A DNA stretch of 64,000 nt from a bacterium (GTDB lineage Bacteria > Patescibacteriota > Dojkabacteria > SC72): the NCBI GenBank assembly GCA_021108295.1, contig JAIORF010000102.1, positions 7,260-71,259 on the forward strand, read 5' to 3'. The notes under the pieces were generated by a model that did no database searches, was not told where the DNA came from, and saw only the letters and a list, made by a program, of their open reading frames with translations. Below, one piece after another: positions 8,798 to 34,365 of this stretch; the first letter of the stretch is position 1; each line of letters begins with the position of its first letter. The position numbers and the translations under genes are program-made.

Positions 8798-8820
8798 TAT
8801 TATTTCTAAACATACTGTCT

Positions 8821-10561: not shown

Positions 10562-10600
10562 TGCTTAATTATCATATATTCTGTTAGAATAATCAATACT

Positions 10601-16886: not shown

Positions 16887-17903
16887 ATGATAGGAAAGAA
16901 ATTAGGAATTGATTTAGGTACGGCCAACTCTGTGGTATTCGTGCAGGGGGAGGGTATCGTATTTGTAGAGCCAACTGTTGTGGCTATTGATGTTAATAGT
17001 TACAAAGTTATTGCTGTAGGAAAAGAAGCAAAGGAGATGATTGGTAAGACTCCTGAGAATATTGTAGCCAAGAGGCCTCTTAGGAATGGTGTTATCGCAG
17101 ATTCTCGGGTGACAGAAGCCTTGCTTAAATACTTCTTTGATAAGGCTTTGGGTAAGACTAGGTTTTTCAAACCGGATGTTGTGATAAGTGTGCCTGCAGG
17201 TATTACTACTGTAGAGCAGAGGGCTGTACTTAAGGCTGCTAATGCTGCTGGTGCAAAGAATATTACACTTCTTCCTGAACCACTGCTTGCTGCACTTGGT
17301 GCAGAACTTCCAATTAATACTTCCTCGGGTAATATGATAGTTAATATGGGAGGTGGTACTTCAGAAATTGCAGTAATCTCTTTGGATGGAATTGTAAGGT
17401 ATGATTCCTTGAGGGTGGCTGGAGATGCTATCAATGAGGCGATAATAGCATATATGAGAAAGAGAAAGGGTGTATTGATAGGAGAACAGACTGCAGAGAA
17501 AGTTAAGTTTGAAATAGGATCTGCACTTGAGATTGAAAAGCCCCTAGAGATGGAGGTAAGGGGTAGGGATGTTGGTGCAGGAGTACCTAAGGCAGTATTG
17601 GTTAATTCTAATGATATTGCTCAAGCTGTTAAGATGCCACTGAGAAAAATTATACAGTCCATTAAGGGTGTTCTTGAGCAAACTCCTCCTGAGCTTTCTG
17701 CAGACATTATAGATAGGGGTATGGTAATGAGTGGTGGTACTGCAGAGTTGAGAAATCTAGACAGATTGATATCCAAAGCTACAGGTGTTCCAGCCCATGT
17801 TGCTAATGAACCAATATTTTGTGTAGCTAAGGGTACTGGTATGGCTTTAGAGCTAATCGCTTCTGGACAAAGGGTCTTTGTCTTTGAAAAAAAACTTAGT
17901 TAG
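16887..17903 (+). CDS. mreB: Rod-shape-determining actin homologue MreB (copy 1)
   Basis: IGIDLGTANSVVFV phosphate-1 motif, DIGGGT-type motif (NMGGGTSEIAV), and MreB length. Confidence 0.9.
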   Translation: MIGKKLGIDLGTANSVVFVQGEGIVFVEPTVVAIDVNSYKVIAVGKEAKEMIGKTPENIVAKRPLRNGVIADSRVTEALLKYFFDKALGKTRFFKPDVVISVPAGITTVEQRAVLKAANAAGAKNITLLPEPLLAALGAELPINTSSGNMIVNMGGGTSEIAVISLDGIVRYDSLRVAGDAINEAIIAYMRKRKGVLIGEQTAEKVKFEIGSALEIEKPLEMEVRGRDVGAGVPKAVLVNSNDIAQAVKMPLRKIIQSIKGVLEQTPPELSADIIDRGMVMSGGTAELRNLDRLISKATGVPAHVANEPIFCVAKGTGMALELIASGQRVFVFEKKLS

Positions 17904-17917
17904 TGTATATTAACAGT

Positions 17918-19084
17918 ATGATTAGTATGTTTAGTAAAAAAGGAAGAAGTGAGAGAAAGTTAGAAGAAGTAACAAAGCTTCTTCAACGGCTTCGTATTCC
18001 AATTGGGTTGGTATTTACACCAACAAATCTCAAAGAAGAGAAAAAGAGGTTCTTTAATTCAGAAATGTATGAGCCTAATTTTGAGTATAGGGGGATAAAG
18101 AATAAGAATAATGAGATATTTAGAGAGTTGTCTGGTCTAAAGACTATTACAGATATTGACCCAAGGATTTCTGATTTCTATATTGAGTTAATAGAGTCAA
18201 AGAAAGACTCTAGTGCTTTAATGCATGGTGTGGGGAATAATGAATTGGTGACAGAACTGTCATTGAAAAAGTATGGAAAGGTTTCTCCGAAGCTTTTTAG
18301 AAATGCTAGTAGAGTGCTTAGGGGTAAGTTGGATAGTTATAATGTTGTTCAGGCAACTACTGTTGATAAAGGTAAGGTCTTGAATTACAATCAAATAGAT
18401 GAGGTTTTCAAGGTCGCTTTTGAAAGTCTTGGACTATCGGATTGGTCTATATTCCCTTCCAAAAACATTTCAAAGAATGCGGTTAAGGTTGGAATTAAAC
18501 GTAAACAGATATTTGTTGATCCAAATATCACACGATCAGAGTATAAGTTAAAGAAACTTCTTGTGCATGAGATTGGTACTCATGTTTTGCGATCACACAA
18601 TGGTTTTAAAACTGGGTTCCCAGCTTTAGGTAATGCTAATTTGCCCTCATATCTTGATGTAGAAGAGGGTCTTGCGACTTGGAATGAGGAAGCTATGGGT
18701 TTTCTTACTGATAAATGGCTTAAGAAGAAAGCTGGCTTGGTATGGGCAATATATATTGGAGAGGAGATGACGTTTAGGCAGTTGTATAATGCATTGTCAG
18801 GTAGTTTCTTAAAATATTCTGCATGGGATATTGCTTATAGGGTCAAGAGAGGACTAGGGGATACCAGTTATTCGGGAATATATGTGAAGGATGTAGTTTA
18901 TTTCAGGGGTTTTAGGAAGGTAAAGCGTGTATTGGAGAAGGATAGTGCAATGTATGAGAAGCTGTATGCTGGTAAGATAAATATTAAACAGACTAAGTGG
19001 GTTGATGAGGGGTTGTTACCAAAGCCACCAATTGTGCCGTCTAAGGAGTTGTGGAATGATATTTTTGAGAAAGCTAATCTCTAA
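17918..19084 (+). CDS. DUF1704 / QEGLA-motif (MATCAP-family) putative zinc metallopeptidase
   Basis: HEIGTH (HExxH) is followed by VEEGLATWNEE (QEGLA-like). The start is moved from the GTG at 17903 to the first ATG. The stop overlaps the convergent ATP-grasp gene by 11 nt. Confidence 0.5.
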   Translation: MISMFSKKGRSERKLEEVTKLLQRLRIPIGLVFTPTNLKEEKKRFFNSEMYEPNFEYRGIKNKNNEIFRELSGLKTITDIDPRISDFYIELIESKKDSSALMHGVGNNELVTELSLKKYGKVSPKLFRNASRVLRGKLDSYNVVQATTVDKGKVLNYNQIDEVFKVAFESLGLSDWSIFPSKNISKNAVKVGIKRKQIFVDPNITRSEYKLKKLLVHEIGTHVLRSHNGFKTGFPALGNANLPSYLDVEEGLATWNEEAMGFLTDKWLKKKAGLVWAIYIGEEMTFRQLYNALSGSFLKYSAWDIAYRVKRGLGDTSYSGIYVKDVVYFRGFRKVKRVLEKDSAMYEKLYAGKINIKQTKWVDEGLLPKPPIVPSKELWNDIFEKANL

Positions 19085-20030
19085 AGGCTGTAATCATAGC
19101 TTCTGCAATGTTTATAGGCTCTCCATCTGTAATTTTAGTCTCATAGGCTTTGAAACCAGGATGTAAGCTAATCTCTTGTATATATGGTTTATCGTTTTTA
19201 AACATAAAGTCTACTGCGATGAAGTCTGCATCGAAGATATTAGCGACCTTCTGTGCAATTTGTGTGATTTCTTCGTTTGGTTCGTTGTACATATGATAAC
19301 TTCCACCACTTACTGTCATAAAACCTTTTGTTGCCTTACGTTTCCAACCACCAATTACTTTACCAAACTTTACAAATATGCGTACGTCTTCTGGATTGGT
19401 AGAGAATTCTTGTAAAAAGAAGGCCTTATGGTCTTGTTTACATAAATGTTTTTGGTTTAGATCTTTTACATTGTCTAGTTTGTATACATTCTTTTTTACT
19501 TTCTTCTTACCAAATTTCCTATCAATTCTGTTTACTCCTGCGTATTCTTTGATAATTAGGGGGTAGTTGTTTAATACATCTCTAGCTTTAGTGTAATCGC
19601 CACTAGTAGAGTAGTATGTGTCAAAATATGGGATTTTGTGTGTAGCAAAGATTTGTGCAGTGTAGATTTTGTTGTAGTAGGGGAGTTTCTTGATAGCGTT
19701 ACTGTTATATACCAAGATCTTGTTATCAGGGTGAGATAAATTGTATTGATCAGTCCAGTCGACTATCAGTCTTTTCATCTGGTATTCTCTTGGACTATGT
19801 AAATTGTGACCTCTGAGTATGATATGAGAGTATTCTGTGATATGGTTACCTGCGAATTTTAGATGTGTTTCACCATCGAGTAGGAAGAATTCTATTTGGT
19901 TGTTGTATACAAAATCGTATGGAATATCTTTTTTGTCCAATTCCTCCATCATCCGTTTTACAGCTGAAGGGTATTTACCAACTCCTTTGACTTTTACTCG
20001 TGGTTCTTTGTCTATGATGAGGTATTTCAT
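19074..20030 (-). CDS. RimK-like ATP-grasp amidoligase (operon gene 5)
   Basis: ATP-grasp pattern: IKEYAGVNRIDRKFGKK, FFLQEF...EDVRIFVKFGKVIGGWKRK, and ADFIAVDFMFKNDKPYIQEISLHPGF. The ATG overlaps the upstream stop (TAATG). Confidence 0.6.
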   Translation of the reverse strand: MKYLIIDKEPRVKVKGVGKYPSAVKRMMEELDKKDIPYDFVYNNQIEFFLLDGETHLKFAGNHITEYSHIILRGHNLHSPREYQMKRLIVDWTDQYNLSHPDNKILVYNSNAIKKLPYYNKIYTAQIFATHKIPYFDTYYSTSGDYTKARDVLNNYPLIIKEYAGVNRIDRKFGKKKVKKNVYKLDNVKDLNQKHLCKQDHKAFFLQEFSTNPEDVRIFVKFGKVIGGWKRKATKGFMTVSGGSYHMYNEPNEEITQIAQKVANIFDADFIAVDFMFKNDKPYIQEISLHPGFKAYETKITDGEPINIAEAMITAFRD

Positions 20031-21739
20031 TATATTGTGTTGATTATTTTAATATGTTTCTTTCGTTTATATTTCTTTATAATCTTCATTTCGGTTTTGT
20101 GGGATTTAATGTCTTTTGTGACAAAGAGAATATCTATTTTATCAAATCCTAGTCCATGTTCTTTGACTTCATCTAGGTCTCTGTATTGTAGGATGATGGT
20201 GTCTAGGGCTGCGTTGACTTTGAGGGCTTCAATGGCCTTCCAGGTATCAATATTGTCATTAAATTCACAGTTATTAATTAATATCTTATGGTCTTTGTAT
20301 ACACCGACATTTTCTTCATTATTAATGTATCCTTTTTTCCTTAGTAGTGTAGGGATATCGTCTGTACTTTGGCCAATTACTACATATTTCTTTGTGTGAT
20401 TGTCTTTGAGTAGGGCTTGAACGTAGTAGGTGAGTGCTTCCGTTTGTACTTCTCCAATTACTGGGAAGAAGTTAAGGTATGATTCTGGCATAGTATTGAC
20501 CTCTAGTATTGCACCGTTGTCTTTTGTGAGTGGCTTTGAGATGTCTTTACACATTATATCTACACCTAAGGTAAATACATGCATTGTAGAGGCTATTGAT
20601 TCTACGATTATTTTTATCTCAGGAGATACTTTGTCTGAGAAGTCTTCTGTTATTCCTCCTCTACTCATACTTGCTATACCTCGTACATAGATTTTTTGAT
20701 TTTTTGTAGGTATAGATTCTAATGTTAAGCTCTGTTTTTCTAAGAAGGTTGTTAGTGGATCATCAAATATTATTGGCTTTAAGGTATGTGAAGGGTTACT
20801 TGTATTTCTTCTTGGGTCTTTGTTTGTTTCGTCTATGAGTTTCTTGATAGAAGATTTTCCATTTCCGATGATAAAGGCTGGTATTCGTTTGGTACAGACT
20901 TTTAGTTCCCCGTTGATAACCAAAAGCCTGTAGTCTGAGCCGTCTTTAGGGCCGTCTACCTGTTCCTGTATCATTATCTTTTTTTGCCAAGCACTTCTTT
21001 TTTTTGCTTCTACCTGTTTTGTGGCGTATTCTAAAGCATTGTAGGCTTTTTCCTTAGAGTCAATACCTACGACAACACCACTTCCTCCTGTTAGACCAGT
21101 TGGTTTGATAACTAGAGGCTTCTCATATTGAGCCCAGACTTTATCAATGTCTTTTTTGGAATCAATAATTTCCCATTTAGGTAGGGGCAGACCCATTCGT
21201 TCTATGATTTTGTTTGTTGACCATTTGTCTCGTTGAACTTTCATACCAAAGGTTGAGTCTTTTGTTGAAGCTATGGAGCAGGTTGCTTCAGATCCTTTAC
21301 CACAGCCTAGTGTGTAGTATCTATTCCAAGTGTAACCGAATCCTGCGGAGGTTCCGGGAACTATATCTTCGTTAGCAATTGTGAGTGTAGTTTCGTATCC
21401 TAGTTCCTGAGCTTTATGTAGTATTGGGATGGTAGACATAGAGTTAACTCTTTGTTTGATTACGGTGCCTAGTGTGTAATCTTGAGCTTCTTGTAGAGTT
21501 ATTTCTGAGTTGGAGAGTTTTCTAAAGGTTTTTGCACAATTTCTCCAGATACCTGGTAATTTGGAGCTTATAGTTAGGAGGTTGTTTTCTAATTTGTAGT
21601 TTTCAATAAATATTGGGTGAAATCCTTGGATTAGGTTTAGTAGTTTGAAGAGTTCTTCGCTTTCTTTAATGTCTGAGATCTTAATTTGAGTAGTAGGGGA
21701 TTCAAGGTTTAGGCCTTGTATTGTTTTGAGGTTTTTCAT
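20030..21739 (-). CDS. ATP-grasp ligase resembling the cyanophycin-synthetase N-terminal (G) domain, with N- and C-terminal extensions (operon gene 4)
   Basis: LVIKPTGLTGGSGVVVG, YRLLVINGELKV, and IIGNGKSSIKKLIDETNKDPRR resemble CphA-like GDGKxTIxELI..N.DPRR. MSRGGITEDFSDKV is also present. No Mur-ligase domain is seen. Confidence 0.6.
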   Translation of the reverse strand: MKNLKTIQGLNLESPTTQIKISDIKESEELFKLLNLIQGFHPIFIENYKLENNLLTISSKLPGIWRNCAKTFRKLSNSEITLQEAQDYTLGTVIKQRVNSMSTIPILHKAQELGYETTLTIANEDIVPGTSAGFGYTWNRYYTLGCGKGSEATCSIASTKDSTFGMKVQRDKWSTNKIIERMGLPLPKWEIIDSKKDIDKVWAQYEKPLVIKPTGLTGGSGVVVGIDSKEKAYNALEYATKQVEAKKRSAWQKKIMIQEQVDGPKDGSDYRLLVINGELKVCTKRIPAFIIGNGKSSIKKLIDETNKDPRRNTSNPSHTLKPIIFDDPLTTFLEKQSLTLESIPTKNQKIYVRGIASMSRGGITEDFSDKVSPEIKIIVESIASTMHVFTLGVDIMCKDISKPLTKDNGAILEVNTMPESYLNFFPVIGEVQTEALTYYVQALLKDNHTKKYVVIGQSTDDIPTLLRKKGYINNEENVGVYKDHKILINNCEFNDNIDTWKAIEALKVNAALDTIILQYRDLDEVKEHGLGFDKIDILFVTKDIKSHKTEMKIIKKYKRKKHIKIINTI

Positions 21740-21748
21740 TGGTTGGGA

Positions 21749-22735
21749 TTATGAATTTAGATATTTTTGTTGTATATATTTCATTATTGGTATTGCTACT
21801 CTTGCAATTTCTCCCTCATCTACTTTGTAGTGTATTCTAAGTCCTGGGTTGTAGTTGATTTCGTTAATACCACATTTCACTTTCTTGGTAATGTCTGGTG
21901 TTATTATATCTACACCTCCAAATTCTGTTCCTATGGCGTGTACTGCGTCTATTGCTAGCTGTTTGTAGTAAGGGTGTACTTCCTTATTGCATTCTTGTGT
22001 AGTTCCTCCTGTAGAGAGATTACAGCTATATCTTAGGATTATATCTTCTTTGTCTTGTGGTATGGAGTCTAGTGTCATATTGAGTTCACGGAGTCGTAAG
22101 TTTACTTCATTATCAATCTTGATTGGTTTTAAGAGGTCGGTTTTTCTTTTGTTATTAAAAAGATTTATTAGTTCTTGTATGCTGTTTTTACCATCGCCTA
22201 TTACATGTGCGGCTTTTCTTCTTACTGTACCTACGATTTCATTTCCTACTACTAGGAGTCTGTAGTTTTCTCCTTCTAGAAATTCTTCACCTAAGACGCC
22301 TATATTACCTTTTGATTTGTTTTTTGTTTTAGCTATGGTATAAGCCTCTAGGACTTCTTTTTCATTGCTTGGGAGTAGTGTAATTCCTATTCCTCCTAGT
22401 TGTTGTGTTGGTTTGATCACAATTCTTTTATATTTGGCAAAGAATTTTATTGCATCAATTGGGCTTTTGAGTTTCTCTTGTTTTGGAACTGGTATTGCAG
22501 ATTCTTCAAGTACTAGGTTTGTGAGGTGTTTTCTTTTTGCAATTGTTGCGGATGTGGTATTGGTAAGTGGTGTAGCGGTGTTTATTATGTGCCATACCTT
22601 ATCTTTGCATCTGAATTCTGCAAGAAGGCTTGGTACGAGTACTTTGTAGTGTATTTTTAATTCATCGGCAGCTTCTAGGTAGTATGCTAGGTGTACATTG
22701 CCAGCTTCTTTTAGGTAGTCTGTGTATGTTTTCAT
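21749..22735 (-). CDS. Stand-alone ATP-grasp ligase, cyanophycin-synthetase G-domain-like (operon gene 3)
   Basis: IVIKPTQQLGGIGITLL, YRLLVVGNEIVGTVRRKAAHVIGDGKNSIQELINLFN, and NLSTGGTTQECNKEVHP...GGVDIITPD. Confidence 0.6.
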   Translation of the reverse strand: MKTYTDYLKEAGNVHLAYYLEAADELKIHYKVLVPSLLAEFRCKDKVWHIINTATPLTNTTSATIAKRKHLTNLVLEESAIPVPKQEKLKSPIDAIKFFAKYKRIVIKPTQQLGGIGITLLPSNEKEVLEAYTIAKTKNKSKGNIGVLGEEFLEGENYRLLVVGNEIVGTVRRKAAHVIGDGKNSIQELINLFNNKRKTDLLKPIKIDNEVNLRLRELNMTLDSIPQDKEDIILRYSCNLSTGGTTQECNKEVHPYYKQLAIDAVHAIGTEFGGVDIITPDITKKVKCGINEINYNPGLRIHYKVDEGEIARVAIPIMKYIQQKYLNS

Positions 22736-22744
22736 ATATGTATA

Positions 22745-24211
22745 TTACTTAAATATAGAGGAGGTATCAATGAGGTATCCTGTGAGTTCAGATCTCCCTA
22801 TTACTAGAGGGTAGGGGATATCGTTTGTAATGACGGCGTTTAAGGCCTTTTTATCTCCAGATATTTTAATACGGATATTAATTACAGGTCTGATTACAAT
22901 TTGTCCATCTTCTACAATTTTTGCAAGTCTTACTATGTCTGGATGGTTGGTGATTTTCTTCCCTTTGGCATCAATATATTCTTGTGCGTCTTTAAAGGTG
23001 GGGAAGCTCTTTGGTGTTTCTAACTGTTTGAAGTATTTATTTATATCGGTGTATCCTGTTCTGCTAGAGAGTCTTGTGGAGATACGGGTGGTAAGTACAC
23101 CGGTGTCTATGAATGATTTAGTTAGTTCTTTTTCTATCTTTATTTTTGTTTTCTTTTTCTTGTTTAGGATTTTAGGTTTGTGGTATACGTATACTTTTTC
23201 AGTGATGTTGACGACCTTACGACCACTTATAGATTCGATGCTTTCTTCAATTTCTCCCCCAAAGAGGTTTTTTCCTATTCTAATACCGTGTTTGATGCTT
23301 TTTACTTCTAGTCCTTTGACTTTTTCGAGTCTCCATCTTAGACCTGCTTGATTTGCTACCTGTATTCCTAGTCCTGGTCTTGCGTTGACCTCAAACACAA
23401 CGGGTCCTTTGTCACGGTCAATTGCGATGTCTACTCCGATATATCCGAGTTTTGAGGCTTTTTGGCATTTGAGGGCAATTGTAAGGAGGTTGTTCCAATT
23501 TGGTATTTGGATACCACTTAGAGATTTGTTTTCTTCAAGGTCTACTGTTTTGTCAATCATTTCGTATGTATCACTAATTAGGCTTGTTGGTTGCATATGC
23601 ATTGAGTAGGTGGTTATCCCTGTGCTTATATCGATGCCTGTACATATTGCTCCAGTGTGTAGGTTGGCTGTACCGTTAGATCTTTTGGTAGGTAGTCGTG
23701 TCATTGCCATGATGGGGACTCCATTAAAGCAGATTATTCTAATATCAGGTACTCCTTTGTAGGAGTATTGTTTAAGGAATGGGTCTGTTTTTACTCTTTC
23801 TTCGATGATTGCAGTATCTTTTCGGGAACCCATGGAGTATCTGCCTTCTAGGATGTTTTCTATATGTAGTATTATGTCCCTTTTAGACATTATCTTGCCG
23901 TTTGGTCTAATCCAGGCGTTTTGTCCTTTCTTTTTGCCGTAGAATACTATGATTCCGTTTCCTCCTGTTCCTTTGTTTGGTTTTATCACAAAGCTTTTTG
24001 GTAGTGATTCCCAGTCAAGGTATTTCAGTTGTTTTTTGCTTCTAATGAGTTTGTATACGTCGGGTGTTTTTATCCCTTCTTTTTTTAATATTCTTTTGGT
24101 GACTATCTTGTTGTCTGCAATGGCTTTTGCAGAGAGAGAGTTGTATGGTCTTATATATTCTTGGTTTCTTCTGTTTAATCCAAGAATGTCTTTGAGGGTG
24201 TTCCTATGCAT
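22745..24211 (-). CDS. ATPgrasp_ST / alpha-L-glutamate-ligase-related RimK-like ATP-grasp (operon gene 2)
   Basis: The N-terminal ILGLNRRNQEYIRPYN motif typifies the 7TM-associated RimK-related family. It is followed by FVIKPNKGTGGNGIIV and GVDIAIDRDKGPVVFEVNARPGL. Confidence 0.6.
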   Translation of the reverse strand: MHRNTLKDILGLNRRNQEYIRPYNSLSAKAIADNKIVTKRILKKEGIKTPDVYKLIRSKKQLKYLDWESLPKSFVIKPNKGTGGNGIIVFYGKKKGQNAWIRPNGKIMSKRDIILHIENILEGRYSMGSRKDTAIIEERVKTDPFLKQYSYKGVPDIRIICFNGVPIMAMTRLPTKRSNGTANLHTGAICTGIDISTGITTYSMHMQPTSLISDTYEMIDKTVDLEENKSLSGIQIPNWNNLLTIALKCQKASKLGYIGVDIAIDRDKGPVVFEVNARPGLGIQVANQAGLRWRLEKVKGLEVKSIKHGIRIGKNLFGGEIEESIESISGRKVVNITEKVYVYHKPKILNKKKKTKIKIEKELTKSFIDTGVLTTRISTRLSSRTGYTDINKYFKQLETPKSFPTFKDAQEYIDAKGKKITNHPDIVRLAKIVEDGQIVIRPVINIRIKISGDKKALNAVITNDIPYPLVIGRSELTGYLIDTSSIFK

Positions 24212-24866
24212 TATCTTTTTCTTCTAGTATAGATTGAAATCTAAGAAGGTCTTTGAATCTTAGGCCTTTGAATTGTCCAATTAGTATGTTTATGAGTATG
24301 AATACGGGTATTATCCAGAGGTTGTTTACTAGGTTGGTGGAGATTACGTCTCTTGTGATGATAAACCAGCCTAGTGCTGAGATTGCGATTGTAGAGAAGA
24401 GTGTAAGGAATGATGTTTTGAGGGATTTCTTTACATATTGTTTTGTAAAGAAGTCTCCTAGTGCTGCGATTGAGATCATAGCTAGGGATGGGATGTATGC
24501 CATGTTTTCTAGTGTTAGTCCATATTTGTCTATTACCATTAGGAAAAGTGTTAGGGAGAGTATGAGTATGCAGTAGTTGATAGCGATTCTTGTTATGTAG
24601 TGCATTCTAATCCTTCGTAGCACAGAGTAGGAGAGTAGGGTGCTAAAGATTACTACGGTAGTAATTGCTAATCCATACTTGAGTCCTGTGTAGGAGTATG
24701 CGATTGCGAGTATTATGGGTGCGTATATTCCGTATGTTTTGTTACCGAAGATGTATCTTCCGATACTTACTAGGGTAGCTAGTAGAGCAATTGTGATGAA
24801 GAGCTCTAAAGTTTGACTGGGTACACCATTTCCCAGTATCCAGGTTGTAAATGGAGAGTATTCCAT
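24204..24866 (-). CDS. Seven-helix integral membrane protein, probable 7TM partner of the ATP-grasp ligases (operon gene 1)
   Basis: Seven hydrophobic helices in 220 aa. It overlaps the downstream ATP-grasp gene by 8 nt, and it is the first gene after the rplL terminator. Confidence 0.5.
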   Translation of the reverse strand: MEYSPFTTWILGNGVPSQTLELFITIALLATLVSIGRYIFGNKTYGIYAPIILAIAYSYTGLKYGLAITTVVIFSTLLSYSVLRRIRMHYITRIAINYCILILSLTLFLMVIDKYGLTLENMAYIPSLAMISIAALGDFFTKQYVKKSLKTSFLTLFSTIAISALGWFIITRDVISTNLVNNLWIIPVFILINILIGQFKGLRFKDLLRFQSILEEKDNA

Positions 24867-26031: not shown

Positions 26032-26060
26032 ATTATATATGTTTAGGTGTAGGTGGTCAA
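26032..26060 (-). promoter_or_regulatory. rplJ promoter (TTGACC-17-TATAAT) ahead of a ~90-nt L10 leader
   Basis: On the minus strand: TTGACCacctacacctaaacataTATAAT. It lies 12 nt downstream of the cassette-A terminator U-tract. Confidence 0.6.
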
Positions 26061-26071
26061 GTAGGGTAGTG

Positions 26072-26755
26072 GTAGGAAAGAAAAAGAACACCCTTAATAT
26101 TTGTTGACCGAAGTCAGAAATATTCCTCTGCTAGGAGGGGGTGTTCTCGTTCATATGGGGGTGGGGTTATTCCTAGTCGTCGTAATCCTCTATTAGTACG
26201 GGATATACTGCTGTGATCCCTGCTAAGGCGATGAGTACGTATACCAATACAACGGGATTCCAGCTCGGTATCATTATTACGCTGAGATATGCTATCGCTC
26301 CTCCTACAAGATAGGGGAAGCTTTTCTTGCAGATGAATATTGCAAGATCCTCGAGGATCTCTCCTAGGAATTTTTGTGTTTCAGGCTTCATCTCTGTCAC
26401 TTGACTTGTATCTTTCCTCATCTGTCTTATTCTTTTCTGCATTTTATTTCTCCTTTTAACAATATTGTTTGTTTTTATTATAACCATACTATTAAACTTC
26501 AACTGCTTAAAATCTAATATATGGTTATAACTATCCTAAGGAGACTAACCTTTTTTCCATATGAAAACTTGTATAAATATGGATATAAATATCACATAAT
26601 ACAAGAATATTTTAAAGAACTAGTTTCTTATAAAAGAAACATAAAAAAGATAAGGAAATCTCTCTCTATGAAGCTTTTATGTATGTTTTGGGGATATATT
26701 AAGGTGCAGTATTAACTATCTACTACATTATACTATAGGACGACATTAGTGTCAA
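26072..26755 (-). repeat. Cassette unit A: sigma70 promoter, ~250-nt conserved leader, small 2-TM ORF, conserved structured terminator
   Basis: Promoter TTGACA-17-TATAAT at 26727-26755 (minus). The leader 26473-26726 is near-identical to copies at 27157, 27843 and 30855. The terminator stem AGAACACCC/GGGTGTTCT at 26085-26147 (inner TGAC-CGAA-GTCA hairpin) is followed by a U-tract. Confidence 0.8.
26173..26442 (-). CDS. Small two-TM membrane protein (cassette A cargo, 89 aa)
   Basis: The start is moved to the internal Met (MQKRIRQMRKD...), preceded by AAGGAGA. The N-terminal MKFNSMVIIK of the listed ORF is read from the conserved leader. Two hydrophobic helices. Confidence 0.55.
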   Translation of the reverse strand: MQKRIRQMRKDTSQVTEMKPETQKFLGEILEDLAIFICKKSFPYLVGGAIAYLSVIMIPSWNPVVLVYVLIALAGITAVYPVLIEDYDD

Positions 26756-26767
26756 TTACACGTATGG

Positions 26768-27437
26768 GCAAGAAAGAAAAAAGCACCCTTAATATGTATT
26801 GTTGACTAATGAAAGTCAAAAATATCATAAACCTCTGTTAGGAGGGGGTGCTTTATTCATATGGTTAGGGATGCCAGATAGTAGACAGAAATTTCGAGAT
26901 AATCTGAAATGATCCATGAATACTTATCGCTTCTACAATATATACGAATAATAGTAATGCTACACATATATATGTGAAGAGGATAAGTACCCTCGTTTCT
27001 TCCTTGATTGGATTCCAGACCTTGGGTATTTTAGTGGGTATTGGGCACTCTAAAGACCACTTGAGAAGAGAGAATCCCCCATAAAAAAGCCCAGCTATGA
27101 CTCCCGTTATGGTAATCGCATCATAGATGTTCATGTTTAAGCTCCTTTTTAATTGTTTTATTATAACCATACTATTAAACTTCAACTGCTTAAAATCTAA
27201 TATATGGTTATAACTATCCTAAGGAGACTAACCTTTTTTCCATATGAAAACTTGTATAAATATGGATATAAATATCACATAATACAAGAATATTTTAAAG
27301 AACTAGTTTCTTATAAAAGAAACATAAAAAAGATAAGGAAATCTCTCTCTATGAAGCTTTTATGTATGTTTTGGGCTGTTTAAAGGTGCAGTATTACTAC
27401 CTACTATATTATACTATAGGGCAGGGGGTGTAGTCAA
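26768..27437 (-). repeat. Cassette unit B (same architecture as A)
   Basis: Promoter TTGACT-18-TATAAT at 27408-27437. Leader 27157-27407. Terminator stem AAAGCACCC/GGGTGCTTT at 26780-26854, a compensatory variant of the stem in A and D. Confidence 0.8.
26865..27134 (-). CDS. Small two-TM membrane protein (cassette B cargo, 89 aa)
   Basis: The start is at the internal Met (MNIYDAITITG...), preceded by AAAAGGAG. It is unrelated in sequence to the cargo of A, C and D. Confidence 0.55.
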   Translation of the reverse strand: MNIYDAITITGVIAGLFYGGFSLLKWSLECPIPTKIPKVWNPIKEETRVLILFTYICVALLLFVYIVEAISIHGSFQIISKFLSTIWHP

Positions 27438-27449
27438 TATGGTGTATGG

Positions 27450-28124
27450 GTGAGAAAGAAAAAGCACCCTTAAATTATGTATTGTTGACTAATGAAAGTC
27501 AGAATAAATAAAGTGGGTGCTTTTTTCATATGGGGGGGGTTAGAACAAGTTCCAAACAAATACGACAGCCATTATGAACAGAAGGGCAATATTCTTAGCC
27601 GCTTTACGGGCAAGCTTTCTTGCTTCTTCTTCTCTTGCTTCGTCTTCTTTTGCTTCAGATTCTACAACTAAGGTATTCACCTTATAGGTAGTTTGTATTA
27701 TCACTATTAGTGATAATATTCCAACCTGGATTTGCTGCGTTTTTAACAACGAGAGCAAAGCTTCCAAGAAAAGCATCGCATCCTTAAAGAAAAAAACTAC
27801 ATCCTTAATCATTTTATGTCTCCTTTATATTATAGAATATTGTTTTATTATAACCATACTATTAAACTTCAACTGCTTAAAATCTAATATATGGTTATAA
27901 CTATCCTAAGGAGACTAACCTTTTTTCCATATGAAAACTTGTATAAATATGGATATAAATATCACATAATACAAGAATATTTTAAAGAACTAGTTTCTTA
28001 TAAAAGAAACATAAAAAAGATAAGGAAATCTCTCTCTATGAAGCTTTTATGTATGTTTTGGGCTGTTTAAAGGTGCAGTATTAACTATCTACTACATTAT
28101 ACTATAGGGCAGTGGTGTGGTCAA
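27450..28124 (-). repeat. Cassette unit C (same architecture)
   Basis: Promoter TTGACC-17-TATAAT at 28096-28124. Leader 27843-28095. Terminator stem AAAGCACCC/GGGTGCTTT at 27461-27523. Confidence 0.8.
27540..27812 (-). CDS. Small two-TM membrane protein (cassette C cargo, 90 aa)
   Basis: MIKDVVFFFKDAMLFLEALLSLL... The charged middle is EAKEDEAREEEARKLARKAAK. AAGGAGA RBS. Confidence 0.55.
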   Translation of the reverse strand: MIKDVVFFFKDAMLFLEALLSLLKTQQIQVGILSLIVIIQTTYKVNTLVVESEAKEDEAREEEARKLARKAAKNIALLFIMAVVFVWNLF

Positions 28125-28127
28125 TGT

Positions 28128-28153
28128 GTAGAAAAGGACCCTTTCGAGTCCTT
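28128..28153 (-). terminator. Intrinsic terminator of rplA
   Basis: Minus-strand RNA reads GGAAGGACUCGAAAGGGUCCUUUUCU. It ends 4 nt before the -35 of the cassette-C promoter. Confidence 0.55.
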
Positions 28154-28175
28154 CCATATTCATAATCAAAGAATA

Positions 28176-28862
28176 TTACTCCTTACTGTAGCTAATCTTT
28201 ACACCTGCGCCCATTGTAGGAGCAAGATGAAGACTATTTAGTAGTTGAGAAGAACTCTTGTTTAATACCTCTTCTAGGGTAGTAATACAAGTATGTACAT
28301 TCTCCATTAGGTCTTCTGTAGACATATCTAACTTACCTGCGTTCATATGTATAACTCCACCCTCATCACAAACAAAAGTCTGTTTACCCTGCTTATACTC
28401 CTTAATCGCACTAGCAATATCTTCAGTTACTGTACCACTCTTAGGATTAGGCATAAGGCCCTTAGGACCTAATTCTCTACCAAGTGCTGCTATTGAAGCC
28501 ATGACTGTAGGAGTTGCTATTGCAACATCAAAGTCTGTCTTTCCGGCCTTAATATCTTTTGTTAGCTTATCTAGGCCTACAATATCTGCTCCAGCCTTCT
28601 TAGCAATATCTTCCATATCTGGAGAACAAAAGACTGCAATCTTTACATTACTAGTACCACTAGAGTGGGGTAGTGTGTATGCACCTTTAATGGATTTAGG
28701 ATCCCTATCCTTTGGTACTTTGATATCAGCATGTACTTCTAGTGTACCTACAAAGTTAGAGTAAGAGAGCTTCTTTACCTGTTCAATAGCCTCTTTAAGG
28801 TCGAGTATGACATTATTGTCATATCCTTTTATACTCTTATTATATCGTTTCCCTCTTTTCAT
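28176..28862 (-). CDS. rplA: Ribosomal protein L1
   Basis: L1 signature across the full 228 aa (GTLEVHADIKVPKDRDPKSIKGAYTLPHSSG...). Confidence 0.9.
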   Translation of the reverse strand: MKRGKRYNKSIKGYDNNVILDLKEAIEQVKKLSYSNFVGTLEVHADIKVPKDRDPKSIKGAYTLPHSSGTSNVKIAVFCSPDMEDIAKKAGADIVGLDKLTKDIKAGKTDFDVAIATPTVMASIAALGRELGPKGLMPNPKSGTVTEDIASAIKEYKQGKQTFVCDEGGVIHMNAGKLDMSTEDLMENVHTCITTLEEVLNKSSSQLLNSLHLAPTMGAGVKISYSKE

Positions 28863-28880
28863 AGTTAGTATATATACAAA

Positions 28881-29306
28881 TTAAAGTTCAACTGTTACAC
28901 CCATCTGTTTTGCAGTACCTGCTACAATTTTAGCAGCTACCTCTGGGTCTGTAGTATTTAAATCAGGCATCTTAATCTTAACAATATCAAGGACTTGCTT
29001 CTTTGTAAGAGTACCAACTTTAGTTAGATTAGGAGTTGCCGAGCCCTTCTTAATATCTAGTGCTCTTCTAATCAATTCTGATGTAGGAGGAGTTTTAAGT
29101 ATGAAATCGAATGATCTATCATCGTAGATTGTGAGGATTACAGGGGTTAATATCCTGTCGTCTTCTCTAGTCTTCTCATTAAATTGAGTACAGAAGTCTT
29201 GTCCATTTATACCGTAAGGAGCAAGTGTAGGACCTATTGGAGGAGCCATTGTTGCACCACCTGCAGGAATTGTAATCTTAAGTTGTGCTTTTATTGGTTT
29301 TGCCAT
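28881..29306 (-). CDS. rplK: Ribosomal protein L11
   Basis: MAKPIKAQLKITIPAGGATMAPPIGPTLAPYGINGQDFCTQFN... Confidence 0.95.
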   Translation of the reverse strand: MAKPIKAQLKITIPAGGATMAPPIGPTLAPYGINGQDFCTQFNEKTREDDRILTPVILTIYDDRSFDFILKTPPTSELIRRALDIKKGSATPNLTKVGTLTKKQVLDIVKIKMPDLNTTDPEVAAKIVAGTAKQMGVTVEL

Positions 29307-29324
29307 TTTTTGAGTTTAATAATA

Positions 29325-29885
29325 TTAAAGTTTAGTGACCTGTGAAAAATCAAGTTCAACAGGAGCTTCTCTACCTAGGAAAGAAATGAGGACTTTTATC
29401 TTACCCTTAGTAGAATCAATCTCTTGTACACTACCGATGAAGTCTGCAAATGCACCTTCAGTAATCTTTACGGCTTCCCCTATACTAAATGAGGTCTTGA
29501 ATGAAGGTTGTTCGACTTCCATATATTGCATAATGGCTTTAACTTCACTCTCAGGTAGTGGTCTTGGCTTTTTGTCTGTTCTTACAAAGCCTCTTACACC
29601 TTCAATGCTGTTGAGTATCTCCCATGTGAGTTCACTTAGTTCTGCTTTAACTAAGATGTATCCTGGGAATATCTTGTCTTCAACTACATTCTGTTTCCCT
29701 TTTTTAACAACGATTTTCTTTTGTACAGGGATTAAGATCTCTACAATCTGTTTTTCTAAACCAGAGGCTTCTATTTTCTGTTGTAATTCCTTTTTGATAG
29801 CATTTTCATACCCAGTTCGTATGTTGAGTACATACCATTTGGCTTTAGGGTTTGTTATTTTCTTTTTCTTTGTTGTTTTTGGCAT
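29325..29885 (-). CDS. nusG: Transcription antitermination factor NusG
   Basis: NGN domain (KWYVLNIRTGYENAIKKEL) and C-terminal KOW (GKIKVLISFLGREAPVELDFSQV). Confidence 0.9.
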   Translation of the reverse strand: MPKTTKKKKITNPKAKWYVLNIRTGYENAIKKELQQKIEASGLEKQIVEILIPVQKKIVVKKGKQNVVEDKIFPGYILVKAELSELTWEILNSIEGVRGFVRTDKKPRPLPESEVKAIMQYMEVEQPSFKTSFSIGEAVKITEGAFADFIGSVQEIDSTKGKIKVLISFLGREAPVELDFSQVTKL

Positions 29886-29887
29886 TT

Positions 29888-30064
29888 TTAGAATATATTT
29901 ATAGTAAGATACCAGTCTCGAATCTTAAAAAAGATTAGGTCTAAGCCTGTTGCAAAGAGGGCTATTATAGCACAAAGAATTGTAGTATATATTGTCAGTT
30001 TAATCAATTCAAGGCCTGTTGGCCACTTTGTCATTTTTAATTCACTAATTATTCCTTTTATCAT
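29888..30064 (-). CDS. secE: Preprotein translocase subunit SecE
   Basis: KMTKWPTG (K-V/T-x-WP) plus a single TM helix. The start is moved to the internal Met so it clears tRNA-Trp. Confidence 0.75.
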   Translation of the reverse strand: MIKGIISELKMTKWPTGLELIKLTIYTTILCAIIALFATGLDLIFFKIRDWYLTINIF

Positions 30065-30076
30065 ATTTTTGTTTTC

Positions 30077-30152
30077 TGGCAGGCCCACTCTGATTTGAAC
30101 AGAGAACTATGGTTTTGGAGACCACTGTTTTACCAGTTGAAACTATGGGCCC
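30077..30152 (-). tRNA. tRNA-Trp (anticodon CCA)
   Basis: Minus strand GGGCCCA...TGGGCCTGCCA. Anticodon loop CTCCAAA, T-loop TTCAAAT. CCA is encoded. It sits in the conserved rpmG-trpT-secE position. Confidence 0.75.
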
Positions 30153-30184
30153 TTAGCGGTTTCAACGTAATTTAAAAAGAGCGT

Positions 30185-30349
30185 TTACTTTATCTTTGTC
30201 TCCTTATGTAAAGTATGTTTTTGACATTTCTTACAGTATTTGTTTTGTTCAATTTTTTCTTTAATATTCCTAGTTTTGTATGTAGTGTAATTCCTGTTTT
30301 TACATTCACTGCATTGTAGAACTATAATATTTCTTTTTGCCTTTGCCAT
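30185..30349 (-). CDS. rpmG: Ribosomal protein L33 (C4 zinc-ribbon type)
   Basis: Hand-translated 54 aa: [54 protein letters not shown]. It is not in the ORF track (<60 aa). Confidence 0.8.
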
Positions 30350-30437
30350 TTGTTTCTGGGTTTCAATTTATGATGGTGGGAAATATACTGAGGGTATTAT
30401 ATATTGAAAAGTAGGGGAGGTCAAATATTGAGTGTAG

Positions 30438-31138
30438 GTAGGAAAGAAAAAGAACACCCTAAATATTTGTTGACCGAAGTCAAAAATACCTCTGTATAAG
30501 AGGGGGTGTTCTGTTCTTTTCATAGGGGGGGTTAGTAGTTGAAGTTCTCTAGGACGAGAATCCACACTGCGGTAAGGCCTAGTACGATAAGGAGCAATGC
30601 AGTAGCGGTGAAGCGAAAAGAATCTTTTTTATTCTTACTCATCTTCTACTCTCTCCTCTTCTGCCTTCTTGAACAGTATTGCTAATGCTATCAGTTCCGT
30701 TATAAAGGCCAAAGCCCAGACGGGAAACGTGGCTTCTAAGAAGAACATTATGACTATTTGTATCAAGACAATTAGCCACAGTAAGTAATAAATGTTCAAT
30801 TCCTTTATAGAGTCTTTCACTTTTTCCTTTAACATTTTGTTCTCCTATTTATATTTTTATTATAACCATACTATTAAACTTCAATATACTTAAAATCTAA
30901 TATATGGTTATAACTATTCTAATAAGGAGTAACCTTTTCCCATATGAAAACTTGTATAAATATGGATATAAATATCACATAATACAAGAATATTTTAAAG
31001 AACTAGTTTCTTATAAAAGAAACATAAAAAAGATAAAGAAATCTCTCTATATGAAGCTTTTATAGGTGTTTTGGGATATATTAAGGTGCAGTATTAACTA
31101 TCTACTATATTATACTATAGGGTGAAGGTTGGTGTCAA
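30438..31138 (-). repeat. Cassette unit D (solo copy, slightly diverged)
   Basis: Promoter TTGACA-18-TATAAT at 31109-31138, 11 nt from the tRNA-Thr 3' end. Leader 30855-31108 has about 10 substitutions relative to A-C. Terminator stem AGAACACCC/GGGTGTTCT at 30451-30512. Confidence 0.8.
30635..30835 (-). CDS. Small two-TM membrane protein (cassette D cargo, 66 aa)
   Basis: MLKEKVKDSIKELNIYYLLWLIVLIQIVIMFFLEATFPVWALAFITELIALAILFKKAEEERVEDE. Confidence 0.55.
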   Translation of the reverse strand: MLKEKVKDSIKELNIYYLLWLIVLIQIVIMFFLEATFPVWALAFITELIALAILFKKAEEERVEDE

Positions 31139-31149
31139 TCTGCATATAT

Positions 31150-31226
31150 TGGAGCTGGATCTGAGAATCGAACTCAGGACCTCATTCTTACCATGAATGC
31201 GCTCTAGCCATCTGAGCTAATCCAGC
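31150..31226 (-). tRNA. tRNA-Thr (anticodon GGT)
   Basis: GCTGGAT...ATCCAGCTCCA. Anticodon loop ATGGTAA. T-loop TTCGATT. Confidence 0.75.
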
Positions 31227-31270
31227 TAATATGGTGATTATACAATAAAAGAATTCCTTTTTGGAAATAT

Positions 31271-31855
31271 CTAATCTTTTAGGTTGTTTGTCTTCTTAAA
31301 AAATATATACCAAAGAGGCAAAGAAAGTACAAGTAACCCTAACGAATATGCAGGTGCATACTGTGTAGAATATTCTCCAACTCTTGTAAGGAAGTAGTTT
31401 ATTAAATTATATGATGCTGTAGGGATAGCAATAACACCAACTATGCTATATATCATTAAGGAAATAAAGGTATAACCTTTATCTATCCATTCTATGGCAT
31501 CTTTCTTCTTTATCCTTTTAATACCAACCCTATGAAGTATGAAAAGAAGTGACATAGATATGAATATTGATAAGCTATTAACTAATCCATTCTGTCTTGT
31601 AGTTTCATTCCAGCAATATTCGTTACCCTCTATCTCTATAACCTCTCCATTGTCATAACATTTTTCCTCATTAAAGTCTTCCATATATTGAATATCATTT
31701 ACTTGGTGAAGAGAGTAAGAAAAGTGTAGTGGGGCAATGTATGAGGCCCCTGTTTGTATTAGGTATGCTCCTGAAAAGAGGATGGAAACTAAAGTTATTA
31801 AACACATCAGGTGTAAGTATGTCTGGAGTAAGGCTTTGACTGTAATCTTTTTCAT
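31271..31855 (-). CDS. Hypothetical polytopic membrane protein
   Basis: ORF with 3-4 hydrophobic helices, sitting between tRNA-Tyr and tRNA-Thr. No recognisable motif. Confidence 0.4.
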   Translation of the reverse strand: MKKITVKALLQTYLHLMCLITLVSILFSGAYLIQTGASYIAPLHFSYSLHQVNDIQYMEDFNEEKCYDNGEVIEIEGNEYCWNETTRQNGLVNSLSIFISMSLLFILHRVGIKRIKKKDAIEWIDKGYTFISLMIYSIVGVIAIPTASYNLINYFLTRVGEYSTQYAPAYSLGLLVLSLPLWYIFFKKTNNLKD

Positions 31856-33309: not shown

Positions 33310-34365
33310 ATGAAACCATTTAATTCAGTATGGAATCTATTTACCTATGATTTAGGTATAGATTTAGGTACTGTTAATACAATAGTATACTTGAGGGGAC
33401 ACGGTATTGTGATATCCGAGCCTTCTGTAGTTGCTATCAACAAACGAACCAAGAAGATTCTAGCTGTGGGTAATGAAGCACGTAAGATGATAGGTAGGAC
33501 ACCTGCCAATATTGTTGCTATCCGACCATTAAAGCATGGTGTAATTTCTGACTTTGATACTACTCAAGCTATGATTCACCACTTCATACACAAGACGCAT
33601 CGAGGTTTTAAGAATAATTGGAAGGTACCAAGACCACGAGTCATTGTCGGTGTACCATCTTCTGTAACTGAAGTTGAAAGACAGGCTGTGATAGATGCTT
33701 CTAAGACTGCAGGAGCTAGAGAGGTTTTTCTTGTAGAAGAAGCTATGGCAGCAGCAATTGGGGCAAGTTTGCCGATAGAAGATGCCTCTGGAAGCATGAT
33801 TATCGATATTGGTGGTGGAACTACAGATATTGCTGTGTTGTCTCTTGGAGATGTAGTGGTGGATAATACGATAAGGGTAGCAGGGGATGAGATGAACCAA
33901 GACATCATTGATTATGTAAAAGAGAAGTACAACATACTGATTGGTGAAAGAACTGCAGAGGATGTGAAGATCGCTATTGGTTCTGCAATACCTCTTAGTG
34001 ACGAGAAAGAAGTCATATTACAAGGTAGAGATTTAGTAACTGGTCTTCCTAAGTCTGTACAGGTAAGTAGTGTAGAGATAAGGGAGGCAATAATGGCATC
34101 CATAATGGTTATCACAGAGGCTGTAAAGGAAGCTATAGAAGATACCCCCCCAGAGCTAATTAGAGACTTACTTTCTGCTGGTTTACACCTTGCAGGAGGT
34201 GGAGCATTGATAAAAGGGTTGGATAGGTACTGGTCTCATGAATTAAATGTCCCTGTACATATTGTAGACGACCCTATCTCTGCTGTAGCTAGAGGCACTG
34301 CACAGATGCTAGACCATATAGATCTTCTTGATAGGGTTCAATCTTCGTGGAAAGAATTAGTTTAG
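33310..34365 (+). CDS. mreB: MreB (copy 2), first gene of the mreBCD-mrdA cluster
   Basis: LGIDLGTVNTIVYL, DIGGGTTDIAV, full length. Confidence 0.9.
   Translation: MKPFNSVWNLFTYDLGIDLGTVNTIVYLRGHGIVISEPSVVAINKRTKKILAVGNEARKMIGRTPANIVAIRPLKHGVISDFDTTQAMIHHFIHKTHRGFKNNWKVPRPRVIVGVPSSVTEVERQAVIDASKTAGAREVFLVEEAMAAAIGASLPIEDASGSMIIDIGGGTTDIAVLSLGDVVVDNTIRVAGDEMNQDIIDYVKEKYNILIGERTAEDVKIAIGSAIPLSDEKEVILQGRDLVTGLPKSVQVSSVEIREAIMASIMVITEAVKEAIEDTPPELIRDLLSAGLHLAGGGALIKGLDRYWSHELNVPVHIVDDPISAVARGTAQMLDHIDLLDRVQSSWKELV

Follow-up and report, generated by a model that had tools for sequence, protein, structure and literature searches.

The 64-kb stretch of contig JAIORF010000102.1 analyzed here, referred to throughout as the window, comes from a Dojkabacteria bacterium of the candidate phyla radiation (CPR) and carries four related gene cassettes, named A to D, at intergenic positions of its tRNA and ribosomal protein gene cluster. 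All coordinates are positions in this window, and both the cassettes and the host cluster lie on the minus strand. On that strand the gene order is tRNA-Thr(TGT), tRNA-Tyr, orf194, tRNA-Thr(GGT), unit D, rpmG, tRNA-Trp, secE, nusG, rplK, and rplA, followed 3' of rplA by units C, B, and A and then by rplJ and rplL. The four units combine constant promoter, leader, and terminator sequences with mutually unrelated open reading frames (ORFs), and the slots that they occupy are empty or differently filled in relatives. The explanation we favor, and which we hold to be probable if only by a small measure, is that A to D are moron-like expression cassettes residing at permissive operon boundaries, where they are amplified or swapped by homologous recombination via their constant arms.

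Each of the four cassettes is composed of a consensus promoter, an AT-rich leader of about 280 nt, one or two ORFs led by a Shine-Dalgarno (SD) sequence, and a branched terminator. A promoter plus leader block of about 290 nt is common to all four units at 82-100% identity, as is a conserved 3' element; the number of matches to the repeat block or the 3' element expected in shuffles is 0.04-0.07, and a scan of the window found only these four copies of leader and 3' element, clustered and in the same orientation. The promoters read TTGACA-18-TATAAT in unit D (31109..31138; 12/12, with the conserved block CCTATAGTATAATATAGTAG), TTGACC-17-TATAAT in unit C (28096..28124), TTGACT-18-TATAAT in unit B (27408..27437), and TTGACA-17-TATAAT in unit A (26727..26755; 12/12). 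They thus score 11-12/12 against the sigma-70 consensus, vs. no site of at least 11/12 in a 20-kb control stretch of the window. The leaders, at about 22% GC, extend over some 280 nt from the predicted transcription start, form a 25-bp hairpin directly 5' of the ribosome-binding site, and fold much better than shuffled sequences (z-score -5.7, the value of the unit C leader). Those of units C (27813..28095), B (27135..27407), and A (26443..26726) were classed as type 1. The C and B leaders are 100% identical over 245 nt and that of A is near-identical to both, while the type 2 leader of unit D (30836..31108), which carries the hairpin, an anti-SD CUCCUU, and the box UUUUCAUAUGGG, differs from type 1 chiefly in a single 28-nt patch. 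Approximately 130 nt of the leader are invariant across six copies.

The ORFs enclosed by these constant parts differ in every unit. The variable segment of unit D (30532..30835) contains a 66-aa ORF (30835-30635) and a 36-aa ORF (30642-30532), both hydrophobic, each with its own SD, overlapping, and translationally coupled. Unit C encodes 90 aa with hydrophobic ends (27540..27812; SD AAAGGAG), unit B 89 aa with two hydrophobic segments (26865..27134; SD AAAAGGAG), and unit A 89 aa with a hydrophobic C-terminal half (26173..26442; also AAAAGGAG). The SD (AAAGGAG or AGGAG) is always located 6-8 nt 5' of the ATG, and every product, with lengths from 36 to 90 aa, has at least one hydrophobic, transmembrane-like segment of at least 19 residues. 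No similarity is detectable between any two cassette ORFs, and this includes B vs. C despite their identical leaders. The 3' element starts at or just past the stop codon as TAACC(C)n-AUAUGAA and forms a branched hairpin with the closing stem (A/G)(G/A)CACCC/GGGUG(C/U)U, after which comes a U-tract (z-scores -4.5 to -6.9). That of unit D (30432..30534; z -4.5) begins with TAACCCCCCC-UAUGAA and is closed by GAACACCC/GGGUGUUC; those of units C (27452..27542; z -6.3, with the conserved motif), B (26770..26866; z -6.9), and A (26066..26172; z -4.5, 96% identical to the 3' element of D) are built alike. Judged by these sequence signals, each cassette would be an autonomous transcription unit with its own predicted promoter and its own factor-independent terminator.

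Three further observations concern the constant parts. The poly-C tract directly 3' of the stop codon varies in length across cassettes and lineages (C2, C4AC5, C7, C8, and C10-11; window positions 27530-27540, 30520-30530, and 26155-26168, and positions 9590-9605 in the relative L003) and is a possible hotspot of slipped-strand events. A 53-64-aa ORF runs antisense to each leader on the plus strand (26521-26715, 27204-27383, 27891-28070, and 30904-31065); it was rejected as spurious, being an invariant stretch with no synonymous variation, a length that tracks the leader type, and no homologues. It is nevertheless annotated as a gene in some public assemblies, and when it was used as a search proxy it found this locus alone, in three assemblies, which makes it of use for locating leader copies in protein databases. 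Mimicry of the L10 leader of rplJ by the cassette leader was considered and dropped, as the two have TAGTTAAT alone in common.

The positions recorded for the units in the initial annotation were all recovered: C, B, and A occupy the interval that runs from the rplA terminator to the rplJ promoter, and D that from tRNA-Thr(GGT) to rpmG. The fixed landmarks are tRNA-Thr(GGT) (31150..31226; found by ARAGORN and as Rfam tRNA), the 3' end of which is 11 nt upstream of the -35 box of unit D, and the genes rpmG (30349-30185), rplA (28862-28176), and rplJ (25940-25419). The intrinsic terminator of rplA (approximately 28131..28153), as read from the sequence, is a GGACUC-GAAA-GGGUCC hairpin with a UUUUC U-tract. 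The promoters of rplJ (26032..26060) and rpmG (30396..30424, directly 3' of unit D) are both TTGACC-17-TATAAT. The rplJ promoter had been described as having the same form as the cassette promoters, and this is correct for the consensus hexamers, which the rplJ and rpmG promoters have in common with the cassettes, and incorrect for the block CCCTATAGTATAATRTAGTAG, which is private to the cassettes. The spacing at the junctions, thought to be uniform, is compact yet variable: between the T/C-rich tract and the -35 box that follows there are 5 nt after rplA and 13-15 nt after the cassettes, with 11 nt from the tRNA 3' end, and with the last stem base as the starting point the distance is 11 vs. 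25-27 nt. The absence of tuf from the window was confirmed by tblastn over all 64 kb, although the analogy drawn with the tufB slot of other bacteria does not apply to this clade, in which the tRNA-Thr(GGT)-rpmG slot carries a different lineage-specific gene in each relative (a HAD hydrolase, ORFs of 136, 149, and 157 aa, or an 817-aa protein); in the distant relative L004 it holds nothing.

The synteny of the rplA-rplJ interval was compared in a graded series of Dojkabacteria-like relatives retrieved from a large protein collection, with identity expressed as the rplK plus rplA nucleotide identity to the window and the spacer taken as the distance between the stop codon of rplA and the start codon of rplJ. 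A Dojkabacteria metagenome-assembled genome (MAG) with 48% L1 identity, the closest species representative in GTDB, served only for the background of spacer lengths. The spacer is 2235 nt with three cassettes in the window and 1548 nt with two cassettes in L001, which has an identical L1, and it is 863 nt with a single cassette, the orthologue of A, in L003 (88.1%). In L094 (89.3%) a cassette promoter is found 9 nt past the rplA stop before the contig ends. The close lineages thus hold three, possibly two (L001), one (L003), and at least one (L094) cassettes. Five relatives at 71.8-88.5% identity have an empty spacer of 122-170 nt, namely L093 (88.5%, 128 nt), L089 (80.0%, 167 nt), L084 (79.8%, 166 nt), L090 (75.0%, 122 nt), and L091 (71.8%, 170 nt). 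Two others are filled with unrelated DNA: L085 (74.8%, 659 nt) has a 139-aa membrane ORF with its own TTGACT promoter and L088 (75.0%, 903 nt) a 239-aa ORF on the opposite strand. In a neighbor-joining tree of rplK plus rplA the topology is (L003,(window,(L093,L094))), so that L093, which is empty, has the occupied L094 as its sister, and likewise the filled L088 and the empty L090 are sisters at 91.7% identity. The empty relatives, the nested position of L093, and the contrast between L088 and L090 together argue that the ancestral spacer was empty and that unrelated DNA has entered the slot in at least three independent events. The check proposed at the outset, a search for empty sites among relatives, therefore speaks for the cassettes being insertions and not ancient fixed genes. 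The presence/absence polymorphism is backed by two independent datasets, those of L093 and L094.

When filled and empty junctions are aligned, the insert ends on the right exactly where the rplJ -35 box begins (...CCCTAC|TTGACCacctacacctaaacataTATAAT), while its left end is the cassette's own TTGAC, which follows the T-tract of the rplA terminator in the window and in L003 and directly follows the rplA stop codon in L094, where there is no terminator. The rplA terminator is kept in L003, L084, L089, and L091 and is absent from L093, L094, L090, and L088; in L093 (1344-1473), L094 (1144-1181), and L090 (5687-5810) the -35 box of rplJ or of the cassette comes 8-9 nt past the rplA stop. As the terminator is missing from several relatives it is not a constant feature of the junction, and the supposed targeting of terminators gives way to an association with the downstream promoter boundary, the cassette of L094 following rplA with no terminator in between. 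Nor is a dedicated site-specific mechanism evident: L085 and L088 have unrelated genes at precisely this junction, which, with the terminator-less cassette of L094, suggests a slot that is permissive and not targeted. In the search for a target duplication or insertion motif the only sequence common to both ends was the -35 element TTGAC(Y), which is present in every promoter at the locus. Of the duplication events envisaged earlier, that of a ribosomal terminator-promoter junction finds no counterpart, since the cassette promoters and terminators have nothing but consensus features in common with the rplJ promoter and the rplA terminator; that the cassette as a module has been amplified is supported by the identity of the B and C leaders.

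It should be noted that the rplA-rplJ interval is less rigid than the initial annotation, which called the locus rarely interrupted, had assumed. Among 53 GTDB species with both rplA and rplJ located the gap exceeds 1.2 kb in eight (median 253 nt), so that the rplKA/rplJL operon boundary is a known soft spot. Other taxa with genes at this boundary include a Lachnospiraceae-like isolate with a 462-aa gene (L075, 6729-8117) and the distant Dojkabacteria MAG L004, where about 4.5 kb with five genes separate rplA from rplJ (6791-11200). What is unusual here is the nature and the turnover of the occupants.

The strongest contrast between the cassettes and their surroundings is in divergence. Between the window and L003 the genes rplL, rplJ, rplA, rplK, and rpmG show a proportion of synonymous differences (pS) of 0.28-0.40 and a synonymous divergence (dS) of 0.34-0.56, and the ribosomal genes have a ratio of nonsynonymous to synonymous divergence (dN/dS) of 0.07-0.13. 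The ORF of cassette A has a single synonymous difference together with nine nonsynonymous ones (dS 0.018, pS 0.018), which makes its synonymous divergence about 25-fold lower than that of the flanks (Fisher p 9e-9), while its proportion of nonsynonymous differences (pN 0.043) is the same as theirs. From its -10 box to the rplJ promoter, unit A is 92-100% identical to L003. Slot D has a mosaic structure. Its 5' block (30850-31450) matches L003 at 99.3% (four differences in 600 nt) through leader, promoter, tRNA, and the last 180 nt of orf194 and then stops abruptly; the unit D leader as such is 99% identical to the L003 leaders. The ORF segment of about 330 nt that follows the leader is only about 45% identical, essentially unalignable, and sharply bordered. 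The 3' block (30365-30513; about 150 nt with the 3' element and the rpmG promoter) is again 98% identical, with 98-99% for the 3' element itself, and beyond this 3' block identity falls to the genomic background of 74-92%. The layout of slot D, a 64-66-aa ORF overlapping a 36-aa ORF and each with an SD, is kept in both lineages, with LENF as the C-terminus of either 36-aa peptide. Conservation of the layout despite this divergence argues for real coding genes, which would be deeply divergent alleles held between near-identical arms. As synonymous differences are out of reach of purifying selection on a protein, the low synonymous divergence is read as a sign of exchange, and the contrasts as a whole have the pattern expected of recent recombination through constant flanks. 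In addition, the promoter patch of the cassette in the rplA slot of L094, TTGACAccaacaccgtCC, resembles the patch of the D slot in the window and in L003, which hints at traffic between the two slots.

The cassettes are also set apart by their expression signals. A GGAG/GAGG SD precedes all five cassette ORFs, compared with only two of the 51 other genes of the window (p = 5.5e-6). In 18 of the 51 host genes a -10-like box ends 4-12 nt upstream of the start codon, with a peak at 6-10 nt, and this suggests that leaderless mRNAs, or at least SD-independent initiation, are widespread in the host. The cassettes, with their long leader and SD, are architectural outliers in the window. One of the two other genes with a strong SD (aagggggagaggaATG) is a 408-aa ORF (49038-50264, minus strand) with no Pfam match, which may be foreign. 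Folding alone predicts a paired cassette SD in each of the six leaders (probability of being unpaired at most 0.03), and in four of the six minimum-free-energy structures its partner is a conserved CUCCU that lies about 80 nt further 5', on the other side of the long hairpin. There is furthermore an 11-13-nt complementarity between the leader box UUUUCAUAUGG(G) and the 3' box (C)CCAUAUGAA located right after the stop codon (duplex energy -12 to -19 kcal/mol), and this 5'-3' helix is present in three of the six full-length minimum-free-energy folds. These folding results are predictions, for which the two leader types offer no covariation to test.

Database searches mark the cassettes as lineage-restricted. 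Neither the cassette ORFs nor the antisense ORFs had a significant match in Pfam, PHROG, or PADLOC; the sole homologue of ORF A is its orthologue in L003, and ORF B matched only itself among 1.84 billion representatives. No Rfam family reached the gathering score for the leader or the 3' element, and in E-value mode the only matches below E = 0.1 were two tRNA genes, none of them in the leader. An exact-pattern scan with two invariant 25-27-mers of the leader found no match in metagenome_contigs or viral_contigs, blastn of whole cassettes found none in phage and plasmid collections, and nhmmer with a leader profile over 94 fetched loci returned no diverged copy in more distant relatives. There was no PHROG, phage, or viral-contig match at the locus, the neighbors being ribosomal, tRNA, and cell-envelope genes. 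A literature search retrieved no description of such cassettes; a paper on 'hypervariation' in CPR bacteria treats an unrelated intragenic repeat (PMC6851277).

These data would fit a lineage-restricted family of recent accessory additions at operon boundaries of the tRNA-rpmG-secE-nusG-rplKA / rplJL cluster. Two boundaries would be in use, one just upstream of the rplJ -35 box and one between tRNA-Thr and the rpmG -35 box, and inserts placed there should disturb neither of the adjoining operons. The same boundaries appear to gain unrelated genes repeatedly in the Dojkabacteria-like clade, which points to a permissive hotspot as the reason for the location in preference to sequence-specific targeting. 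We infer that the constant leader and terminator act as homology arms: unequal crossing-over between them would gain or lose tandem units, and double crossovers or gene conversion would swap the ORF segment and make the arms uniform, in a single genome as well as among lineages that occur together. Translation of the peptides may be gated by sequestration of the SD by the CUCCUU of the leader, with a possible contribution of the helix between the 5' and 3' untranslated regions (UTRs). No result obtained here requires a dedicated site-specific system.

Several points weigh against this moron-like, recombining cassette family. No recombination event was directly observed. All comparisons are between short-read metagenome assemblies, in which 290-nt repeats can collapse, and the difference between two cassettes in L001 and three in the window, where the join falls exactly inside the identical B/C leader, could be such a collapse or else a real unequal crossover. 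The near-identical blocks of the window and L003 could partly result from chimeric assembly of co-occurring strains, and the two records, with their similar locus-tag prefixes (K8R14_ and K8R20_), may belong to one deposit; the residual differences, ten in ORF A and four in the 600-nt block, argue against simple chimerism with the window strain. Extreme conservation of the leader could reflect strong functional constraint in place of exchange, the preference for boundaries is judged from the copies within 64 kb, and TTGAC at both ends would also fit a target duplication of 5-6 nt or a target motif.

A more far-reaching version, which we regard as possible though rather doubtful, is that this is an undescribed chromosomal gene-cassette array in a CPR bacterium. 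In it a constant module (promoter, leader of about 280 nt, and branched terminator) would serve to acquire, multiply, and exchange genes for ORFan membrane peptides at ribosomal operon boundaries with no integron integrase, SD-dependent translation gated by the anti-SD would form an expression channel apart from the SD-less and largely leaderless initiation of the host, and the alleles of slot D would reflect selection, balancing or diversifying, on peptides involved for instance in toxin/immunity or host interaction.

An unlikely alternative, although one compatible with the cassette family we favor as it accounts for function more than for location, is that the units are addiction modules similar to type I toxin-antitoxin (TA) systems, in which a candidate hydrophobic toxic peptide is encoded by a stable and inert mRNA and selfish persistence and duplication lead to tandem copies and patchiness. 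The ORFan, hydrophobic nature of the 36-90-aa peptides and the combination of a strong promoter with an SD that a conserved anti-SD is predicted to mask are what such a system would show; the complementarity between the leader and 3' boxes recalls the fold-back inhibition of hok, and the three tandem copies and one solo copy recall the LDR (long direct repeat; ldr/rdl) repeats of Escherichia coli. A partner RNA is harder to place, with no promoter-like site of at least 9/12 conserved on the plus strand of the constant regions, where there are only weak, unit-specific 9/12 matches. Unrelated ORFs between constant UTRs are the reverse of what is seen in known type I families, most of the ORFs exceed the typical length of a type I toxin, and the PADLOC and Pfam searches gave no match.

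Still less to be expected, and in our opinion quite unlikely, is that a site-specific mobile system, with its recombinase encoded elsewhere, recognizes a motif at operon boundaries and carries the cassettes as cargo, be it integron-like or a single-strand element of the IS200/IS605 or PATE type that inserts beside TTGAC. The insert does end exactly where the -35 TTGAC begins, TTGAC also opens every cassette, conserved structured elements lie at both cassette ends, presence and absence vary between very close lineages, and the D-like promoter patch in the rplA slot of L094 suggests movement between slots. The motif is uninformative, however, because any promoter needs TTGAC, and genes lacking the leader and unrelated to the cassettes sit at the same junction in L085 and L088. 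No Pfam domain of a recombinase, transposase, or integrase was found among called genes within ±10 kb in three assemblies including L001 and L003. The four 3' elements contain neither of the attC cores GTTRRRY and RYYYAAC and fold as U-tract terminators; no terminal inverted repeats linking the cassette ends were found, the units bring their own promoters, unlike integron cassettes, and all four copies in the 64 kb are clustered and co-oriented. Very unlikely, finally, is descent from old, vertically inherited clade genes lost in some lineages and kept near-identical by strong purifying selection or assembly artefacts: occupation of both the A and D slots at the same positions in the two best-assembled lineages (window and L003), a single loss in the nested L093, and a leader as invariant over some 130 nt as a functional RNA would all suit it, but the one synonymous difference in cassette A against neighbors with pS 0.28-0.40 is beyond the reach of protein selection, the high-identity block that runs on through the D promoter and the tRNA into orf194 and ends abruptly has a pattern typical of recombination tracts, the five more distant relatives are empty and thus point to an empty ancestor, and the cassette ORFs have no homologues outside these lineages.

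The cluster has a third interruption, that by orf194 (31271..31855, minus strand), a lineage-specific gene for a 194-aa membrane protein between tRNA-Tyr and tRNA-Thr(GGT), which is particular to the window and L003; in L084, L085, and L088 the two tRNA genes are 3 nt apart. It has neither a promoter nor an SD of its own and no family match in Pfam, PHROGs, or PADLOC, and its dS relative to L003 is 0.14, below that of the flanking genes, with the last 180 nt or so identical. Elsewhere in the window, rplL is not followed by rpoBC: positions 17903-24866 instead encode a 7TM-transglutaminase-like membrane protein and four ATP-grasp proteins (RimK/YheCD-like), with a MATCAP-like carboxypeptidase nearby. 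This block, present at the same position in every relative with a long enough contig, looks like a peptide-ligase and modification system. Ribosomal protein S2 (41941-43077, plus strand) has a C-terminal extension matching the C-terminal domain of RNA polymerase alpha together with a helix-hairpin-helix domain. Two MreB/Mbl paralogues are encoded within 17 kb on the plus strand (16887-17903 and 33310-34365), the second followed by mreC, an unannotated 162-aa ORF at the position of mreD, and a PBP2-like gene. The topoisomerase I gene contains three direct repeats of 62-97 nt with 74-76% identity (40425-40757, plus strand), which represent repeated zinc-ribbon modules.

The locus indicates that even the most conserved cluster of an uncultured bacterium with a minimal genome holds accessory slots with fast turnover, and it offers a sequence-defined example of how CPR bacteria may acquire, multiply, and exchange ORFan small membrane proteins. 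Used as a probe or covariance model, the constant arms would allow the cassette pool to be recovered from metagenomes, and the combination of an SD and a long leader in a host that appears to be largely SD-less and leaderless constitutes a testable case of gene-specific translational control. If the peptides were toxins, immunity proteins, or host-interaction factors, the locus would bear on competition and attachment in episymbiotic CPR bacteria.

Among known systems, miniature inverted-repeat transposable elements and insertion sequences are typically dispersed, with terminal inverted repeats and target-site duplications; here no inverted repeat links the ends, the only end repeat is the -35 TTGAC, and the four copies within the 64 kb are clustered. 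Ordinary breakpoints between rplKA and rplJL, such as those in L075 and L004, likewise place unrelated genes at the junction of the two operons, whereas the inserts described here are not a fixed single gene but a repeated family of exchangeable cassettes that is polymorphic at species level. The vlp, vsp, and vsa families of Mycoplasma resemble the cassettes in their clustered genes with near-identical upstream regions and divergent membrane-associated products, in their occurrence in a reduced-genome and probably host-dependent bacterium, and in homopolymer tracts within the constant parts. The cassettes differ from them by having no lipoprotein signal peptide, internal repeats, invertible promoter, or recombinase, and by a homopolymer C-tract that sits after the stop codon.

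Type I TA loci (LDR ldr/rdl, ibs/sib, and hok/sok of E. coli) share with the cassettes small hydrophobic peptides, a long structured 5' UTR with the SD predicted to be sequestered, a possible 5'-3' fold-back, tandem and solo intergenic copies, and a patchy distribution, and the translationally inert mRNA that marks them is matched here by in silico folding only. Unlike them, the cassettes encode peptides that are not conserved between copies and mostly exceed 60 aa, and no antisense RNA gene was identified. Integron arrays, for instance the superintegron of Vibrio with its near-identical VCR attC repeats, are also composed of short ORFan genes in tandem between highly conserved repeats, with content that differs among close relatives as ORFs are swapped and repeats stay constant. 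Integron cassettes are generally promoterless, however, and depend on a common promoter (Pc), whereas every unit described here has its 11-12/12 sigma-70 promoter and is self-expressed; the inter-ORF repeat of about 400 nt is made up of terminator, promoter, and leader, free of attC cores, and there is no IntI or attI within ±10 kb.

The closest parallel is with the morons of phages, a concept that is said to go back to Juhala, Hendrix, and co-workers in 2000. Phage morons are autonomous units of promoter, ORF, and terminator located between genes of otherwise collinear phage genomes. The cassettes likewise have their own promoter and intrinsic terminator per unit, sit between genes that are adjacent in related genomes, are absent from close relatives, and encode small accessory proteins with expression signals atypical for the surrounding genome. 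They depart from morons in their setting, a chromosomal ribosomal protein cluster and not a phage or prophage, and in their multiplicity, with four copies in which a constant 280-nt leader and terminator frame exchangeable ORFs.

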